Shown: positions 12,647 to 27,168 of the stretch, one piece after another
Layout of the letters: the number at the start of each line of letters is the position of its first letter
How positions within the stretch are numbered: the first letter of the stretch is position 1
Source: Escherichia coli
Lineage (GTDB): Bacteria > Pseudomonadota > Gammaproteobacteria > Enterobacterales > Enterobacteriaceae
NCBI RefSeq assembly: GCF_048403405.1
Contig: NZ_CP183129.1
Direction: 5' to 3' (one strand)
DNA length: 64,000 nt
Program-made: the position numbers and the translations under genes
The notes under the pieces: model-generated
Databases searched by the model: none
What the model was told of the DNA's origin: nothing
What the model saw: only the letters and a program-made list of their open reading frames with translations

Positions 12647-13549
12647 TTATGAAAGCATAGACCGTTTACCCTCCCTGGGTACGACGGAACAGGGGTCCTG
12701 ATGGATAATCACATCCGATCCCGGAAAACGCCGTAAAATAGCCTGCTCTACCTGATCCGCCACCATATGTGCCTGAACCAAAGGCAGAGAGTCTTCCATT
12801 TCCAAATGAATCTGAATAAAGCGGGTCGGCCCTGACTGCCGCGTGCGAAGATCGTGAGCGCCGCTAACACCCGGCCAGGAAGTCACGATATCAATAATTT
12901 CTTGCCGTTCTTCATCAGGCAATGCGCGATCCAGTAATGACTGTACCGCCTCATATCCCATGCGTAACGCGCTATATAAAATATAGATGCCGATTCCCAA
13001 TGCAAACAGAGCATCGGCGCGATGCCAGCCATACCAGGACAACCCCAGCGCCAGCAGAATTGCGCCGTTCATCATAACATCAGACTGGTAATGTAGCATA
13101 TCAGCCCGCACCGCCTGGCTTTGCGTCCGGCGCACCACCCACCGCTGAAACGAGACAAGGATAATCGTACAAATTAGCGCCACAATTGTCACGATAACCC
13201 CGACGCCTGGATCTGTCATCGGTGTTGGAGATACCAGATGTTGAATACCCGTCAAAAAGAGGAATAGTGCCGAACCGGAGATAAACATACTTTGCGCCAG
13301 CGCCGCGAGGGACTCAGCTTTACCGTGACCAAACGAGTGATTATCGTCGGCAGGTTGCAGGGAATATCGCACCACCAGTAAATTCGTCAACGACGCGCCG
13401 ATATCCACCAGCGAATCCACCAGCGCGGCGAGAATACTCACCGACCCGGTATACCACCATGCAAAAATTTTAATCAGCAATAGCAGCGAAGCCATCGCCG
13501 TCGCAGCAATCGCCGCCCGACTGACCAGCCGTCCATAAGATTGATTCAT
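12647..13549 (-). CDS. fieF: cation-diffusion-facilitator Fe/Zn efflux protein FieF (YiiP)
   Basis: The ORF contains [35 protein letters not shown]...; the 300-aa protein starts at 13549. Confidence 0.95.
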
Positions 13550-13630
13550 AAATACTCCCGCTATCAACTGACGCTAGTATAACGGAAGCAAATCATCTGC
13601 AATGCATTAAGCAGCAGGCAAATTGAGGAT

Positions 13631-13658
13631 AAAAAAAACCCCCACATCATGTGGGGGA
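13631..13658 (-). terminator. cpxP terminator (cccccacat-cat-gtggggg plus T-run on the - strand)
   Basis: Perfect 8-bp stem flanked by an A8 run on the + strand (T8 on the - strand), just downstream of the cpxP stop. Confidence 0.7.
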
Positions 13659-13697
13659 AGACAGGGATGGTGTCTATGGCAAGGAAAACAGGGTTTA

Positions 13698-14198
13698 CTA
13701 CTGGGAACGTGAGTTGCTACTACTCAATAGCTTCAACGATGAACTTTTTTGCCATTGCGTCACGTCGCGCAACTGCTCCATTCGTTGTTGATGTTTCTCG
13801 TTTAAAACCGCTTGCTGCTCCGGCGTTAACAGGCGATACATTTGGTTGCGGACTTTTGCCATCTCAACCTGACGAGCAATTTGCTCATTCGCCATTTTTT
13901 CTGCCTGCGCGCGCACAGCGTTTTCATCAAAATTTTCTGCGGTGACAAGGCGATGCATTGTCTCCAGTTCGCTAACATTAACAGGAGGCTGTTCGTGCCG
14001 GGCCTGTTGCATAAGATCTCGCATCTGCTGACGCTGATGTTCGGTTAAACTTATGCCGTCGAACATATGGCTCTGCGTACTGCGCTGCGTAAGTTCTTCA
14101 CCCGGATGCCAGTTATCGCCTGAACCGACTTCAGCAGCGTGGCTTAATGAACTGACTGCCAGCGTTGAGGCCATGACGGCAGCGGTAACTATGCGCAT
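13698..14198 (-). CDS. cpxP: periplasmic adaptor/inhibitor of the Cpx response CpxP
   Basis: The ORF contains [24 protein letters not shown]... and the LTxxQ motifs. The 166-aa protein starts at 14198. Confidence 0.95.
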
Positions 14199-14277
14199 CA
14201 TTTGCTCCCAAAATCTTTCTGTCGCGATTCAACGATAGAGAGTTTACGATTCAGGCTGCAAACATGCGTCAGGGGGT

Positions 14278-14292
14278 GTAAAACAACGTAAA
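14278..14292. promoter_or_regulatory. CpxR~P binding site GTAAA-N5-GTAAA in the divergent cpxP/cpxRA promoter region
   Basis: gtaaaacaacgtaaa exactly matches the CpxR consensus GTAAA(N5)GTAAA. A reverse half-site (tttac) lies at 14243-14247. Confidence 0.75.
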
Positions 14293-14347
14293 GTCATGGA
14301 TTAGCGACGTCTGATGACGTAATTTCTGCCTCGGAGGTATTTAAACA

Positions 14348-15046
14348 ATGAATAAAATCCTGTTAGTTGATGATGACCGAGAGCTGACTTCCCTATTAAA
14401 GGAGCTGCTCGAGATGGAAGGCTTCAACGTGATTGTTGCCCACGATGGGGAACAGGCGCTTGATCTTCTGGACGACAGCATTGATTTACTTTTGCTTGAT
14501 GTAATGATGCCGAAGAAAAATGGTATCGACACATTAAAAGCACTTCGCCAGACACACCAGACGCCTGTCATTATGTTGACGGCGCGCGGCAGTGAACTTG
14601 ATCGCGTTCTCGGCCTTGAGCTGGGCGCAGATGACTATCTCCCGAAACCGTTTAATGATCGTGAGCTGGTGGCACGTATTCGCGCGATCCTGCGCCGTTC
14701 GCACTGGAGCGAGCAACAGCAAAACAACGACAACGGTTCACCGACACTGGAAGTTGATGCCTTAGTGCTGAATCCAGGCCGTCAGGAAGCCAGCTTCGAC
14801 GGGCAAACGCTGGAGTTAACCGGCACTGAGTTTACCCTGCTCTATTTGCTGGCACAGCATCTGGGTCAGGTAGTTTCCCGTGAACATTTAAGCCAGGAAG
14901 TGCTGGGCAAACGCCTGACGCCTTTCGACCGCGCTATTGATATGCACATTTCCAACCTGCGTCGTAAACTGCCGGATCGTAAAGATGGTCACCCGTGGTT
15001 TAAAACCTTGCGTGGTCGCGGCTATCTGATGGTTTCTGCTTCATGA
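14348..15046 (+). CDS. cpxR: envelope-stress response regulator CpxR
   Basis: 232-aa ORF MNKILLVDDDRELTSLLKELLEMEGF..., OmpR-family. Confidence 0.97.
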   Translation: MNKILLVDDDRELTSLLKELLEMEGFNVIVAHDGEQALDLLDDSIDLLLLDVMMPKKNGIDTLKALRQTHQTPVIMLTARGSELDRVLGLELGADDYLPKPFNDRELVARIRAILRRSHWSEQQQNNDNGSPTLEVDALVLNPGRQEASFDGQTLELTGTEFTLLYLLAQHLGQVVSREHLSQEVLGKRLTPFDRAIDMHISNLRRKLPDRKDGHPWFKTLRGRGYLMVSAS

Positions 15047-16416
15047 TAGGCAGCTTAACCGCGCGCATCTTCGCCATCTTCTGGCTGACGCTGGCGCTGG
15101 TGTTGATGTTGGTTTTGATGTTACCCAAGCTCGATTCACGCCAGATGACCGAGCTTCTGGATAGCGAACAGCGTCAGGGTCTGATGATTGAGCAGCATGT
15201 CGAAGCGGAGCTGGCGAACGATCCGCCCAATGATTTAATGTGGTGGCGGCGTCTGTTCCGGGCGATTGATAAGTGGGCACCGCCAGGACAGCGTTTGTTA
15301 TTGGTGACCACCGAAGGCCGCGTGATCGGCGCTGAACGCAGCGAAATGCAGATCATTCGTAACTTTATTGGTCAGGCCGATAACGCCGATCATCCGCAGA
15401 AGAAAAAGTATGGACGCGTGGAACTGGTCGGTCCGTTCTCCGTGCGTGATGGCGAAGATAATTACCAACTTTATCTGATTCGTCCGGCCAGCAGTTCTCA
15501 ATCCGATTTCATTAACTTACTGTTTGACCGCCCGCTATTACTGCTGATTGTCACCATGTTGGTCAGTACGCCGCTGCTGTTGTGGTTGGCCTGGAGTCTG
15601 GCAAAACCGGCGCGTAAGCTGAAAAACGCGGCCGATGAAGTTGCCCAGGGAAACTTACGTCAGCACCCGGAACTGGAAGCGGGGCCACAGGAATTCCTTG
15701 CCGCAGGTGCCAGTTTTAACCAGATGGTCACCGCGCTGGAGCGCATGATGACCTCTCAGCAGCGTCTACTTTCTGATATCTCTCACGAACTGCGCACCCC
15801 GCTGACGCGTCTGCAACTGGGTACGGCGTTACTGCGCCGTCGTAGCGGTGAAAGCAAGGAACTGGAGCGTATTGAAACCGAAGCGCAACGTCTGGACAGC
15901 ATGATCAACGATCTGTTGGTGATGTCACGTAATCAGCAGAAAAATGCGCTGGTTAGCGAGACCATCAAAGCCAACCAGTTGTGGAGTGAAGTGCTGGATA
16001 ACGCGGCGTTCGAAGCCGAGCAGATGGGCAAGTCGTTGACGGTTAACTTCCCGCCTGGGCCGTGGCCGCTGTACGGCAATCCGAACGCCCTGGAAAGTGC
16101 GCTGGAAAACATTGTTCGTAATGCTCTGCGTTATTCCCATACGAAGATTGAAGTGGGCTTTGCGGTAGATAAAGACGGTATCACCATTACGGTGGACGAC
16201 GATGGTCCTGGCGTTAGCCCGGAAGATCGCGAACAGATTTTCCGTCCGTTCTATCGGACCGATGAAGCACGCGATCGTGAATCTGGCGGTACAGGTTTGG
16301 GGCTGGCGATTGTTGAAACCGCCATTCAGCAGCATCGTGGCTGGGTTAAAGCGGAAGACAGCCCGCTGGGCGGTTTACGGCTGGTGATTTGGTTGCCGCT
16401 GTATAAGCGGAGTTAA
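15043..16416 (+). CDS. cpxA: envelope-stress sensor histidine kinase CpxA
   Basis: 457-aa ORF with the H-box SHELRTPLTRL. The start overlaps the cpxR stop by 4 bp. Confidence 0.97.
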   Translation: MIGSLTARIFAIFWLTLALVLMLVLMLPKLDSRQMTELLDSEQRQGLMIEQHVEAELANDPPNDLMWWRRLFRAIDKWAPPGQRLLLVTTEGRVIGAERSEMQIIRNFIGQADNADHPQKKKYGRVELVGPFSVRDGEDNYQLYLIRPASSSQSDFINLLFDRPLLLLIVTMLVSTPLLLWLAWSLAKPARKLKNAADEVAQGNLRQHPELEAGPQEFLAAGASFNQMVTALERMMTSQQRLLSDISHELRTPLTRLQLGTALLRRRSGESKELERIETEAQRLDSMINDLLVMSRNQQKNALVSETIKANQLWSEVLDNAAFEAEQMGKSLTVNFPPGPWPLYGNPNALESALENIVRNALRYSHTKIEVGFAVDKDGITITVDDDGPGVSPEDREQIFRPFYRTDEARDRESGGTGLGLAIVETAIQQHRGWVKAEDSPLGGLRLVIWLPLYKRS

Positions 16417-16439
16417 ACTCGGCGCAGAGCCGTCCCCTT

Positions 16440-16640
16440 CGGGGTGAAGACAACAGGTCAGCACTGTGCGAACTGATACCCTCACCCCGGCCCTCTCCCT
16501 GAAAGGGCGAGGGGGAAAAACGTAGCCCTGTTCAGCAACGGAGCTGAGCACCGCTCCGGACAGTCCCCTCGCCCCTCTGGGGAGAGGGTTAGGGTGAGGG
16601 GAAAAATTCAGCACAATGCAAACGGCACTGCTCTCACCGG
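16440..16640. repeat. large imperfect GC-rich palindromic intergenic repeat (boxC-like) between cpxA and yiiM
   Basis: Three pairs of nested inverted motifs are arranged symmetrically about position ~16540. The pairs are ccctcacccc/gggtgaggg, ccctctccc/ggggagaggg and gggcgagggg/cccctcgccc. Confidence 0.6.
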
Positions 16641-16671
16641 AAACCATGCCAGATTTCGTATTAAGGCAGAC

Positions 16672-17346
16672 TTATTTTCCCCACAACCGGCGGGAAAAAT
16701 CTTCGATCTTGCCGCTCAGTCGGCGCTTTTGCATCGTCCGCGTCCAGCTTTTCGATAACCCGGCGGCGGAGAGTAAACGGTGATACTGCTCGTCATCAAA
16801 CGGCATATGCCATGCGATGGCGGCAGCCTCCTGCACGGTCACATCACTGACACGGGAAACCAACTCCAGCGGCGCATCAGCAGATACCAACCCTGGCGCA
16901 ATCACGCTATACAACCACCCCACTTTACCCGTGTTTTGCATCAACTGCGCTATATCGCTGATATCAAAATGGTAATTGAGTTTATAGCAAGGTGAGCGTG
17001 GCTGGCTGACCTGAATTAATGCCTCTCCCCAGCGGAAAATATCGCCAATATAAACATTACTTTCCGTCAGACCGTCGGTTGAGAGATTTTCGCCAAACGC
17101 AGGCGCAACAAACAACTCCGCCTGTTCCGGAAATTCCCGCGCCCAGTAGAGATAGTGCTCACGAGGATAATGACACAGCGCTCTGTCTGGCCCGCCGTGA
17201 ACCTTTTTCTCCGCCTGCTCGTCACCTTCCAGCCCCAGCTCCGTCAGCATCAACTCACCATCAACCTGGATTTTAGCAATTGCGCTGGGTTTGCCTTCGG
17301 GATAAGCCTGAATCTTGCCTGTGTATACATCAACCGGATATCGCAT
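16672..17346 (-). CDS. yiiM: MOSC-domain protein YiiM (6-N-hydroxylaminopurine resistance)
   Basis: The ORF contains MRYPVDVYTGKIQAYPEGKPSAIAK...; the 224-aa YiiM starts at the internal ATG at 17346. Confidence 0.85.
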   Translation of the reverse strand: MRYPVDVYTGKIQAYPEGKPSAIAKIQVDGELMLTELGLEGDEQAEKKVHGGPDRALCHYPREHYLYWAREFPEQAELFVAPAFGENLSTDGLTESNVYIGDIFRWGEALIQVSQPRSPCYKLNYHFDISDIAQLMQNTGKVGWLYSVIAPGLVSADAPLELVSRVSDVTVQEAAAIAWHMPFDDEQYHRLLSAAGLSKSWTRTMQKRRLSGKIEDFSRRLWGK

Positions 17347-17494
17347 CTGTTCCCTCTCCACGAGAAATTTCCCCATTAGACCATATTTATTTTATGTCAG
17401 GCGTGCTGTTTTCGCGGTAAGTATCCAGGCAGGAACTCAATAGCAAACCGGACGAACGTTAGTTCATCCGGCTGTGGGGATTAAGGAAGCAGGT

Positions 17495-18478
17495 TTATTT
17501 CACCGTACCTAAAATTTCGATTTTCGCTGCTCTGGCTTTGACTTTACGTGACCAGATAGAGGTAAGAATTGGCACCAGAATCGAAGTCACAATGACCGCC
17601 GTCGCGACCAGCGAAGTTGCTGCCGGAGCCATCGGTTTAAACGCAGGCACCATTTCTGCAATCAGCACAGGTGTCGCTACCGCGGCCCCTGCGGAACTGG
17701 AAGCGGCAATTCCGGCAGTGCCATCGCCACCGCCAATCAATTTATCGGCGATAATCAACGGAATACCGGTCACGATAATTACTGCCACACCCAACAGGAT
17801 CCCCAGCAAACCTGTCTGGGCAATTACAGTCAAATCAATGGTATTGCCCAGCGCGAAGGCAAAGAATGGAATCAGCGTCTGCACCGCTTTGCTGAAAAAT
17901 TCTCGTAATTCAGGGTCAAGGTTCCCAAGGGCAAAGCCCACCAGGAACGGTAATACTGCGCCGACGAAAACATGCGGTTCAAACGAGGCAATCCCGGCAG
18001 TGCCCAGAATAATCATCGTCATGAGCGGCCCGGACTCCAATGACATCAACACAAATGCCCCAGCTTCTTCTTTTGTGCCGTACTGCTGCATGATGGAAGC
18101 GTAAAGTCCGCCGTTGGTCATATCCATCGCCGCCACCAGCGCCAGCGTTGAAAGTCCGGCAAAGAATCCAACTTCAACACCATGTTCCGGAATAATGCGC
18201 GAGGCAATTGCCGCAACCACCCACGCGACGGCAATTTTTGTTACCACCAGCGTACCGGATTTACGCAATACCGTTCCCGTCGCGCTTAATTGTATTGACG
18301 CCCCCATGCAAAAAAACCACACCGCCAGAATGGGCACCGTACCGGTAATCATCCCGTTGGTGAATGATCCAAAATATTTCCCCGCCTCCGGCGAGAAGGT
18401 GTGGCACAGTGCGCCAAGGAATAGCGGGACGAGCATCATCCCCCCGGGATTTTCTCAATCGAGCGTTTTATCTGCATT
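17495..18478 (-). CDS. kdgT: 2-keto-3-deoxygluconate permease KdgT, with an apparent -1 frameshift at codon 13 in a G-run (intact as 314 aa only from the ATG at 18439)
   Basis: The frame starting at the ATG at 18476-18478 gives [13 protein letters not shown], then stops. The [23 protein letters not shown]... remainder follows in the +1 frame. Together these reconstitute the 327-aa KdgT N-terminus. The shift lies in cccgggggg (18425-18440). Confidence 0.8.
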
Positions 18479-18596
18479 TCCATCACCTGTCGGCATATTT
18501 TTAAGGGCTGATGCGTAATTCCTCAATGGAGCATCAGTGTTGATGGAAACGAAGATAGACATTCATTTAATCAATAAAAGTGATCAAAACCACATC

Positions 18597-18617
18597 AATT
18601 GAAACACTGTTTTATTT
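18597..18617. promoter_or_regulatory. KdgR-type operator (aattgaaacactgttttattt) in the kdgT promoter
   Basis: Near-palindromic AATTGAAAC-ACT-GTTTTATTT resembles the KdgR consensus. It lies 120-140 bp upstream of the kdgT start. Confidence 0.55.
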
Positions 18618-18664
18618 TTATCGGATCATTGTTTTTATTTTGAAATTGATCACAAATAAATATC

Positions 18665-19365
18665 CTCCGGCATAGCCGGAGGTTTTTCAAATGCGCCTAT
18701 AAGGCTCTCTTACCAGCCGCGCCCTAACAGGCGCACACGATCTGACATTTGCATCCAACTTCGTTACTTACGGCCCGTAAACGGGCTGCCCGGATAGGGA
18801 ATCGATAACTGCTCTCCCATTTTATCCTCTTCAAGCTGGTGCTTTATGTAATCCTGTATCTTCGCCGTGTTCTTACCCACCGTATCGACGTAGTACCCTC
18901 TGCACCAGAACTCCCTGTTCCTGTATTTGAATTTCAAATCACCAAACTGCTCGTAAAGCATCAGACTGCTTTTCCCTTTCAGATATCCCATAAAGCCGGA
19001 TACGCTCATTTTGGGCGGGATCTCCACAAGCATATGGATATGATCTGCACAGCATTCAGCTTCCAGAATCCGTACACTTTTCCACTCACACAGCTTTCTC
19101 AAAATACTGCCTATTGCTCTACGCTTCTCTCTGTAGAACACCTGTCTTCGGTATTTTGGCGCAAAAACTATGTGATATTTACAGTTCCATCGGGTGTGCG
19201 CTAAGCTCTTTTCGTTCCCCATTGGGACCCCCTTTTGATTTCTTGTTTGACACTTGCAGTTGCCAGACCGCAAGGTGTTTTAACAAATCAAAAGGGGTTT
19301 TAATAACTGGCTTAAAGCTGAAAGCTTTCCGGAACCCCCAGCCTAGCTGGGGGTTTTCTGTGCAC
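18665..19365 (-). mobile_element. IS200-family insertion sequence (IS200/IS605 family, single tnpA). Boundaries are approximate.
   Basis: About 700 bp of extra DNA between kdgT and sodA relative to K-12. It carries a Y1 HuH transposase gene and the characteristic perfect hairpin cccccagc-cta-gctggggg (19335-19353) at the tnpA-proximal end. There are no terminal inverted repeats, as expected for IS200. Confidence 0.7.
18764..19222 (-). CDS. tnpA: IS200-type transposase TnpA (Y1 HuH tyrosine transposase)
   Basis: MGNEKSLAHTRWNCKYHIVFAPKYRRQVFY...HIHMLVEIPPK...: the HuH motif (HIHML) and catalytic region are typical of IS200 TnpA, about 152 aa. The ORF finder extends 17 codons upstream. Confidence 0.85.
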   Translation of the reverse strand: MGNEKSLAHTRWNCKYHIVFAPKYRRQVFYREKRRAIGSILRKLCEWKSVRILEAECCADHIHMLVEIPPKMSVSGFMGYLKGKSSLMLYEQFGDLKFKYRNREFWCRGYYVDTVGKNTAKIQDYIKHQLEEDKMGEQLSIPYPGSPFTGRK

Positions 19366-19396
19366 AACAAAAAAACCACCGCCGTTGGCGATGGTT
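19366..19396 (-). terminator. sodA rho-independent terminator
   Basis: On the - strand: accatcgcc-aac-ggcggtggt followed by T7-9, 55 bp downstream of the sodA stop. The IS200 copy is inserted immediately beyond it. Confidence 0.7.
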
Positions 19397-19451
19397 CATT
19401 TTTTAAGCTGATATGCGGCGTAAACGCCTCATTGCAGCAGGCGGCAAATGA

Positions 19452-20072
19452 TTATTTTTTCGCCGCGAAACGTGCCGCTGCTTCGTCCCAGTTCACCACG
19501 TTCCAGAACTCTTTGATGTAGTCAGGACGGCGGTTCTGGAATTTCAGGTAGTAAGCATGTTCCCACACATCCAGGCCCAGAATCGGGAAGCCGGAAGCGC
19601 CAGAAATAGCTTCACCCATCAGCGGGGAGTCCTGGTTAGCAGTAGAAACCACCGCCAGTTTATCGCCTTTCAGCACCAGCCATGCCCAGCCGGAACCAAA
19701 GCGGGAAGCTGCCGCTTTTTCAAATTCTGCTTTGAAGTTATCAACGGAGCCGAAGTCACGTTCGATAGCCGCTTTCAGGTCACCCTGCAGGGTGGTGCCT
19801 TTTTTCAGACCTTTCCAGAACAGGCTGTGGTTAGCGTGACCGCCAGCGTTGTTGCGCAGTACGGTTTTCTTGTCTGCTGGCAGCTGGTCCAGTTTGGTGA
19901 TCAGCTCTTCAACCGGCAGGTTGGCAAATTCTGGCAGGCTTTCCAGCGCCGCGTTGGCGTTGTTGACGTAGGTCTGATGGTGTTTGGTGTGGTGGATTTC
20001 CATGGTCTGCTTATCGAAGTGCGGTTCCAGGGCATCGTAAGCATACGGCAGGGATGGCAGGGTATAACTCAT
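19452..20072 (-). CDS. sodA: Mn superoxide dismutase
   Basis: The ORF contains [38 protein letters not shown]...; the 206-aa SodA starts at 20072. Confidence 0.97.
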
Positions 20073-26159: not shown

Positions 26160-26330
26160 ACACTGCCTGATGCGGCGCAAGCGCCTTATCCGGCCTACGG
26201 GTCGGCAATAGTTGTAGGCCTGATAAGACGCGACAGCGTCGCATCAGGCATTGATTGCCGGATGCGGCACGAGTGCCTTATCCGGCCTACAGATCGTATA
26301 TCCGGCAACAGGCACGGACGTCCAATTAAC
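26160..26330. repeat. BIME/REP cluster between rhaA and rhaD
   Basis: At least three REP units: gcctgatgcggcgcaagcgccttatccggcctac, gtaggcctgataagacgcgacagcgtcgcatcaggc and gccggatgcggcacgagtgccttatccggcctac. Confidence 0.8.
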
Positions 26331-26343
26331 AGGAACACAGAAC

Positions 26344-27168
26344 ATGCAAAACATTACCCAGTCCTGGTTTGTCCAGGGAATGATCAAAGCCACCACCGAC
26401 GCCTGGCTGAAAGGCTGGGACGAGCGCAATGGTGGTAACCTGACGCTGCGCCTGGATGACGCCGATATCGCGCCTTATCACGGCAACTTTCATGCACAAC
26501 CGCGCTATATCCCGCTCAGCCAGCCCATGCCTTTACTGGCAAATACACCGTTTATTGTCACCGGCTCCGGCAAATTCTTCCGCAACGTCCAGCTTGATCC
26601 TGCGGCTAACTTAGGCGTCGTAAAAGTCGACAGCGACGGCGCGGGCTACCACATTCTCTGGGGGCTAACTCACGAAGCCGTTCCAACCTCTGAACTTCCG
26701 GCGCACTTCCTCTCTCATTGCGAACGCATTAAAGCCACCAACGGTAAAGATCGGGTGATCATGCACTGCCATGCCACCAACCTGATCGCCCTTACCTACG
26801 TACTGGAAAACGACACCGCGGTCTTCACTCGCCAACTGTGGGAAGGCAGCACCGAATGTCTGGTAGTGTTCCCGGATGGCGTCGGCATTTTGCCGTGGAT
26901 GGTGCCCGGCACCGACGAAATCGGCCAGGCGACCGCACAGGAAATGCAAAAACATTCGCTGGTGTTGTGGCCCTTCCACGGCGTCTTCGGCAGCGGTCCG
27001 ACACTGGATGAAACATTCGGTTTAATCGACACCGCAGAAAAATCAGCACAAGTATTAGTGAAGGCTTATTCGATGGGCGGCATGAAACAGACCATCAGCC
27101 GTGAAGAGCTGATAGCGCTCGGCCAGCGTTTCGGCGTTACACCACTCGCCAGTGCGCTGGCGCTGTAA
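26344..27168 (+). CDS. rhaD: rhamnulose-1-phosphate aldolase
   Basis: The ORF contains [33 protein letters not shown]...; the 274-aa RhaD starts at ATG 26344. The ORF finder starts inside the REP cluster. Confidence 0.95.

Follow-up and report, generated by a model that had tools for sequence, protein, structure and literature searches.

An inverted BoxC (PIT/TMECO) doublet between cpxA and yiiM of Escherichia coli

The GC-rich palindrome that lies between the convergent genes cpxA and yiiM in the analysed stretch of DNA (64,000 nucleotides of Escherichia coli contig NZ_CP183129.1, assembly GCF_048403405.1; here called the window) is, with near certainty, an inverted doublet of the BoxC (PIT/TMECO) repeat. 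It is a non-coding, structure-prone intergenic repeat and neither a gene nor a regulatory device specific for cpxRA. Very probably it is best described as a tail-to-tail doublet of one type B and one type A motif within a decayed alternating array, that is, as a generic repeat that does not imply a BoxC-specific function. The family, its A and B types, the inverted pairs, the triplex chemistry and the association with variable loci are already published. Added here are allele frequencies, the near-reciprocal REP and BoxC states of two gaps, a conserved s1 linker with array remnants, and an invertible doublet in Enterobacter.

Results

Location and anatomy of the element

The BoxC doublet is intergenic, located between the stop codons of cpxA and yiiM, which are convergently oriented. 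The gene names are those given by PGAP in E. coli TUM14771, a genome with 100% identity to the window at positions 16100-17000. The core of the element covers 16478-16603, with related sequence on both sides to about 16433 and 16645; the interval 16440-16640, to which the original prediction had assigned it, is adequate. The features of the region are as follows.

15043..16416, plus strand: cpxA, upstream convergent gene (open reading frame and PGAP annotation of the identical region in TUM14771)
16375..16647, minus strand: open reading frame of 90 aa from the mechanical list of reading frames; overlaps the cpxA 3' end and consists of repeat sequence
16433..16452, plus strand: probable type-A BoxC remnant (GTCCCCT joined to TCGGGGTGAAGAC, about 20 nt lost internally), from local alignment
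16453..16477, plus strand: spacer s1 of the head-to-head linker family, consensus about GAACAGGYCAGCACTGGTGCGAAnAtTtA; homologous to the 28-29-nt K-12 linkers at gcvP-ygfF, alx-sstT and fepB-entC
16478..16513, minus strand: BoxC/TMECO motif type B with one mismatch (CCCTCGCCCTTTCAGGGAGAGGGCCGGGGTGAGGGT), from regex and pattern matches; equals K-12 TMECO no. 10 in Table 1 of PMC4666352
16514..16565, plus strand: spacer s2, the 52-nt tail-to-tail linker, from folding and pair comparison; has its own short hairpin at about 16539-16558
16566..16601, plus strand: BoxC/TMECO motif type A with one mismatch (CCCTCGCCCCTCTGGGGAGAGGGTTAGGGTGAGGGG), from pattern matches; equals K-12 TMECO nos. 9, 16, 19 and 22
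16602..16645, plus strand: s1-like sequence and possible B-motif stub (CTCTCACCGG), weakly supported
16672..17346, minus strand: yiiM, downstream convergent gene (open reading frame and PGAP annotation of the identical region in TUM14771)

A nested inverted repeat had been predicted in this gap, and all six arms were found as listed. The left half contains ccctcacccc (16480-16489), ccctctccc (16492-16500) and gggcgagggg (16505-16514), the right half cccctcgccc (16565-16574), ggggagaggg (16579-16588) and gggtgaggg (16592-16600). Between the halves, each of the three arm pairs is fully complementary, whereas the local hairpin of each half has one mismatch. The arms belong to two 36-nt motifs in inverted orientation with 52 nt between them (16478-16601; ACCCTCACCCCGGCCCTCTCCCTGAAAGGGCGAGGGG, the spacer, then the type A motif). 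Patterns combining the arms matched at two sites only in the 64 kb, against an expectation of 0.00 (100 dinucleotide shuffles). None of the 100 dinucleotide-preserving shuffles contained such a site. A chance origin of the element was excluded.

Assignment to the BoxC family

The BoxC repeat of E. coli was later described anew as the PIT (potential intrastrand triplex) element; Holder et al. 2015 (PMC4666352), who cite earlier studies from the 1990s and from Maher and colleagues, use the name TMECO. The consensus is 5'-CCCTCNCCC N3-6 GGGNGAGGG N3 GGGNGAGGG[G/T/C]-3', and the second loop distinguishes type A (TTA) from type B (CCG). Strain MG1655 has 23 TMECO copies, all of them intergenic, which include five close inverted pairs of one A and one B each (PMC4666352). 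Both motifs of the window fit this consensus and are letter-identical to catalogued K-12 copies. The second loop is CCG in the left motif (type B) and TTA in the right one (type A), which corresponds to the published inverted A+B pair. Membership in the BoxC family, at first suggested only as a resemblance, was thus confirmed by the consensus and by the identity of both motifs to K-12 copies. No observation spoke for the RSA class, which had been named alongside BoxC.

Megablast of the element returned 21,932 places in 5157 genomes, with a median of 5 per genome, a search that undercounts short copies. Every match inspected in E. coli was located at a BoxC locus. The sequence is therefore multi-copy, and the alternative of a unique, single-copy sequence was not borne out. 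REP/BIME identity, i.e. a palindrome of the GCCGGATG...CATCCGGC or GCCTGATG... class, was considered and rejected; the cpxA-yiiM gap of the window does not contain a REP. An Rfam scan of 13000-20000 (E<=1) gave nothing credible over the element. The best overlap, Antizyme_FSE at 16553-16606, is chance-level (21 bits versus a gathering threshold of 40, E 0.75).

Further features were seen in the surroundings. A sub-threshold Rfam Hrs1 match (13631-13703, plus strand; 44.5 bits versus a gathering threshold of 56.4, E 2.7e-6) maps between fieF and cpxP, in the orientation opposite to that of cpxP. Between kdgT and sodA an open reading frame for an IS200-type transposase (18764-19273, minus strand; Pfam Y1_Tnp, E 5e-38) and a full-length Rfam STnc490 match (19232-19355, minus strand; 146 bits) were detected. 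The IS200 at 18764-19355 is a strain-specific insertion, because the otherwise identical TUM14771 has only a 260-bp gap at this position.

Remnants of an alternating array

The junctions between motifs were compared in oriented pairs from K-12 (gcvP-ygfF, alx-sstT, fepB-entC, hrpB-mrcB and lldD-trmL), from rhaA-rhaD of other strains and from Enterobacter loci. At the head-to-head junction an A motif is followed by an inverted B motif with the third arms facing each other, connected by the s1 linker (GAACAGGCCGGCACTGGCGCGAATATTTA and relatives). This linker measures 28-29 nt and is conserved in three of the four K-12 head-to-head pairs; the fourth, hrpB-mrcB, has a linker of 18 nt. At the tail-to-tail junction an inverted B is followed by an A. 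The s2 spacer between them varies from 10 to 65 nt across the oriented pairs, and its ends are kept: one reads GAAAA, the other is a short stretch rich in C/G that closes with TC.

On the left side of the window doublet, the K-12 gcvP-ygfF A-s1-B unit aligns over the third arm (GGGTGAGGGG versus GGGTGAAGAC), the spacer and the B motif. This alignment scored 101 at a shuffle mean of 14.9, and 0 of 2000 shuffles were as good. The GTCCCCT match of the left remnant on its own was not significant (265 of 2000 shuffles as good); the remnant (16433..16452) now gives a small CCCC-TTCG-GGGG hairpin. On the right side, local alignment to s1 and B scored 18 at a shuffle mean of 12.1 (33 of 2000 shuffles as good), and the same GAAnA..GCAC start also follows the type-A motifs at rhaA-rhaD and gcvP-ygfF. 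These alignments suggest that the cpxA-yiiM gap represents a decayed alternating array of the form A'-s1-B-s2-A-s1'-B' (16433-16645).

Folding, triplex and G-quadruplex potential

Folding of the element as RNA yielded one long hairpin of -125.9 kcal/mol for the plus strand and -134.8 kcal/mol for the minus strand, each with a z value of -7.2. As DNA, the stretch 16470-16612 folded with -42.2 kcal/mol (z -6.2). The proposed capacity to form a long hairpin was hence supported for RNA of both strands (z about -7) and for DNA.

In vitro, CD and NMR showed a stable purine-motif triplex for type A and type B oligonucleotides, whether or not they carried the mismatch (PMC4666352). When the complementary strand is present the duplex dominates over the triplex, and in vivo DMS footprinting detected no triplex (PMC4666352). 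According to earlier functional studies, as far as they are recounted in PMC4666352, the motif is a block to DNA polymerase in vitro. Variation between strains is significantly higher at TMECO loci than in control gaps, and inverted pairs can collapse to simple hairpins, the link between TMECO and instability in the literature being a correlation (PMC4666352).

In each BoxC motif the G-rich strand reads as a canonical G-quadruplex motif as well (e.g. GGGGAGAGGGTTAGGGTGAGGGG), located at 16579-16601 on the plus strand and at 16479-16499 on the minus strand. One such motif would be carried by each of the convergent transcripts. On the basis of NMR, Holder et al. argue for a triplex and against a G-quadruplex in the DNA oligonucleotide (PMC4666352).

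Signals for transcription

It had been proposed that the element serves cpxRA as a terminator or as an mRNA stabiliser. A promoter scan of 16300-16800 revealed no promoter-like site. The terminator scan of the same interval gave none attached to the BoxC stems; no canonical U-tract follows these stems, which run into A-runs or mixed sequence. The terminator-like sites in this interval were two overlapping weak ones on the minus strand (16613-16639) and one at 16710 inside yiiM. As summarised in PMC4666352, functional tests of PIT motifs showed neither terminator nor promoter activity.

Allele distribution in E. coli

The BoxC allele was present at cpxA-yiiM in 160 of 5426 complete E. coli genomes (~3%), with 99.6-100% identity among the matches listed. 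Judged by their strain names, many of these carriers may belong to ST38/phylogroup D. The gap of 5108 genomes (94%), K-12-like and O157 strains included, is 105 bp long and contains a pair of inverted REPs. Other alleles, e.g. a three-REP form, were found in about 158 genomes. Because 94% of E. coli have the REP pair at this site, the BoxC element does not count among the conserved parts of cpxRA. From one allele to another essentially the entire gap is exchanged, between a left junction ~9 nt past the cpxA stop codon and a right junction at the yiiM stop codon.

The 52-nt spacer and the 126-bp core occur at two E. coli loci only (5426 genomes), and the sole paralogue is located in the rhaA-rhaD gap. 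This second doublet was found in about 783 genomes. Its identity to the window copy was 87-94% with a 65-bp spacer query and ~92% over the 126-bp core in the aligned copies. Only five genomes carry the doublet at both sites. The rhaA-rhaD gap of the window (26160-26344), 9.7 kb away from the element, contains three REPs; that of BoxC strains contains one REP and the doublet. The REP and BoxC states are thus near-reciprocal between the two gaps. All differences between the paralogues (6-10) fall outside the 54 arm nucleotides, so that the 9-nt arms are intact and the loops and the spacer drift. This sparing of the arms matches the published finding that loops vary more than stems.

Matches to the BoxC motif were also found in 137 of 72,556 plasmid records, several of which are megabase-sized and chromosome-like. 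The 70-kb E. coli plasmid pMTY18781-3 (NZ_AP023208.1) carries a genuine plasmid copy, a tail-to-tail doublet with a different spacer at 1500-1620, between a glycosyltransferase gene and flgN. Phage matches were limited to three, two of them in UNVERIFIED records of Campylobacter phages (A18a and A11a). The A18a record (MG065686.1, 150-280) contains a doublet with a 59-nt spacer identical to that of K-12 lldD-trmL. BoxC in the Campylobacter phage records is probably E. coli DNA in the record and not a feature of the phage.

The cpxA-yiiM gap in other Enterobacteriaceae

Representatives of 80 Enterobacteriaceae species were surveyed, and yiiM adjoins cpxA in 68 of them. Here the gap contained REPs in 24 species, BoxC in 13 and other GC-rich sequence, mostly a single hairpin, in 29. 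A GC-rich palindrome is therefore nearly always present in the gap, be it a plain terminator-like hairpin, REPs or BoxC. The single-hairpin form (28-45 nt, often flanked by an A-run and a T-run) was seen in Kosakonia, Trabulsiella, Leclercia and Phytobacter, and the gap of Kosakonia is a textbook arrangement of A-run, hairpin and T-run (TAAAACGCCCTCTCATCGCAGAGGGCGTTTTT). The stems in Kosakonia, Trabulsiella and Leclercia are of the CCCTCTC/GAGAGGG type and resemble the first two BoxC arms. One to several REPs occupy the gap in Escherichia, Salmonella, Citrobacter and some Enterobacter. All 13 representatives with BoxC singles or doublets bear the label Enterobacter.

With a length of 93 bp, the Enterobacter doublet takes up practically the entire gap; it begins 2-3 nt past the cpxA stop codon in most species and 11 nt past it in one. 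Between species, 88-93 of the 93 positions are identical after correction for orientation, compared to 75-86% of the third codon positions of cpxA. Both orientations of the doublet were observed between the same flanks. The copies of E. pasteurii and E. mori (2877-2969, L060 / L074) match at 93/93 positions as reverse complements and at 60/93 in direct comparison, and the two orientations are most simply accounted for by in-place inversion. Position-by-position comparison of four Enterobacter copies revealed four substitutions, three in the spacer and one in an outer arm. A metagenome scan for the doublet gave two contigs only, both of them from the cpxA-yiiM locus. The Enterobacter doublet is locus-specific and not a spreading multi-copy unit. 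Judged from these alignments, its conservation argues for constraint or for homogenisation of the arms and would be unlike a purely neutral passenger.

Discussion

Proposed explanation

We lean slightly towards a picture in which the doublet is a passenger that also provides a generic hairpin. At the DNA level it may extrude as a hairpin or cruciform, or form a transient intrastrand triplex when the DNA is single-stranded. Such structures would promote slippage, deletion, inversion and recombination, and instability driven by structure could explain the flips between REP and BoxC alleles at the cpxA-yiiM and rhaA-rhaD gaps. With two convergent genes and no canonical terminator ahead of the element, transcription reading through from cpxRA or from yiiM would in either case place the doublet at the 3' end of the RNA, where it would fold into a long hairpin. 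REP hairpins are barriers that protect the 3' end of mRNAs from exonucleases. By analogy, the long 3' hairpin of the doublet would probably be a generic barrier to 3'-exonucleases. The barrier may be a by-product of filling a slot in which a GC-rich palindrome is tolerated or required.

Alternative explanations

A generic role as 3'-end hairpin is still conceivable for the doublet, because every relative has some GC-rich palindrome in the gap. The stronger claim, that the doublet is a selected, orientation-independent 3'-end element for cpxRA and yiiM (bidirectional terminator, roadblock or mRNA stabiliser) which is interchangeable with REP pairs and the plain terminator, is possible, yet we hold it to be the less probable reading. 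It agrees with the nearly constant palindrome in the gap, which includes the terminator form of Kosakonia, and with the very stable hairpins on both strands. The Enterobacter doublet, much more conserved than synonymous sites in either orientation, points in the same direction, but conservation of the arms could equally reflect homogenisation among many genomic copies, and the spacer drifts. Moreover, the BoxC stems of the window lack a following U-tract, the published PIT tests, as relayed in PMC4666352, yielded no terminator or promoter activity, and only 3% of E. coli have the BoxC allele at all. An extended version of this idea regards BoxC doublets as a selected orientation-independent module in an ancestral bidirectional-terminator slot, where they would compete with REP/BIME, the 9-nt arms being held invariant across genera by a putative trans-acting factor (a binding protein or a mobilising enzyme). 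It is hinted at by the 95-100% conservation of the Enterobacter doublet versus 75-86% at synonymous sites, by its two orientations and by the near-reciprocal REP and BoxC gaps 9.7 kb apart; we nevertheless consider it unlikely.

Rather than a passenger, the doublet might be a REPIN- or MITE-like mobile unit that has the type A and type B motifs as its two ends and is moved by a transposase in trans. The homology of 92% identity between cpxA-yiiM and rhaA-rhaD does begin and end at the outer arms (126 bp), the rule that A pairs with B holds, and pairing between the motifs is perfect versus one mismatch in each single motif. The two orientations at one Enterobacter site would also fit, but are explained more simply by in-place inversion. 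Mobility is made very unlikely by the presence of the doublet at two loci only in 5426 E. coli genomes, with copies that differ by 6-13%, and by the restriction of the Enterobacter doublet to cpxA-yiiM in the metagenome scan. The alleles are whole-gap replacements with neither a clean insertion nor a target-site duplication. No transposase is known to be associated with BoxC; plasmids rarely carry the motif, and phages practically never do. That the element encodes a small RNA gene or a protein of 90 aa is scarcely credible. Its stable structure and the open frame at 16375-16647 would allow this, but no Rfam family covers the element (Antizyme_FSE being the only overlap, E 0.75), 16300-16800 contains no promoter-like site, and the frame, which overlaps the cpxA 3' end, is missing from 97% of E. 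coli. A Pfam scan of the frame (16375-16647, minus strand) gave no family at E<=1, and PGAP did not call it in TUM14771, a genome with the identical region. The frame is most likely spurious, in agreement with the original prediction. The passenger with a generic hairpin stays our preferred description of the doublet.

Implications

For annotation, BoxC/TMECO inverted pair is the appropriate label of the region, and the 90-aa frame should stay uncalled. The cpxA-yiiM gap is to be regarded as a polymorphic repeat slot and not as conserved regulatory sequence of cpxRA; the gain is small, though real. For the study of BoxC these additions are modestly interesting, and they leave the classification unchanged. 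The locus is a clean natural case in which REP, BoxC and a plain terminator hairpin are swapped within one gap between convergent genes. It could serve as an isogenic test bed for BoxC function, a question that concerns the whole family and is not particular to this copy.

Comparison with known systems

The element shares with the BoxC/TMECO repeats of K-12 the strictly intergenic position, the multi-copy nature, the strain-variable locus and arms that are more conserved than the loops. It differs from the K-12 set in its location, since cpxA-yiiM is not among the 23 K-12 sites, and in the further unit remnants at the locus, which suggest an alternating array. The tail-to-tail arrangement with a long linker is the rarer form; it is found in K-12 at lldD-trmL only, whereas four of the five K-12 pairs are head-to-head.

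A bidirectional intrinsic terminator would occupy the same position, and relatives have a single hairpin with A/T-run flanks there; the BoxC stems of the window are, in contrast, without adjacent U-tracts. Two inverted units that form one long hairpin are also known from REPINs and MITEs, but the doublet of the window has neither their multi-copy spread nor a target-site duplication. REP/BIME elements differ from BoxC in their unrelated sequence, and the third purine arm of BoxC adds triplex and G-quadruplex potential. REPs have a dedicated transposase (RAYT), and none is known for BoxC. Common to REP/BIME and BoxC are GC-rich imperfect palindromes, alternating orientation, characteristic linkers and the shared slot, and the organisation of the array in the cpxA-yiiM gap resembles the arrangement of REPs in BIMEs.
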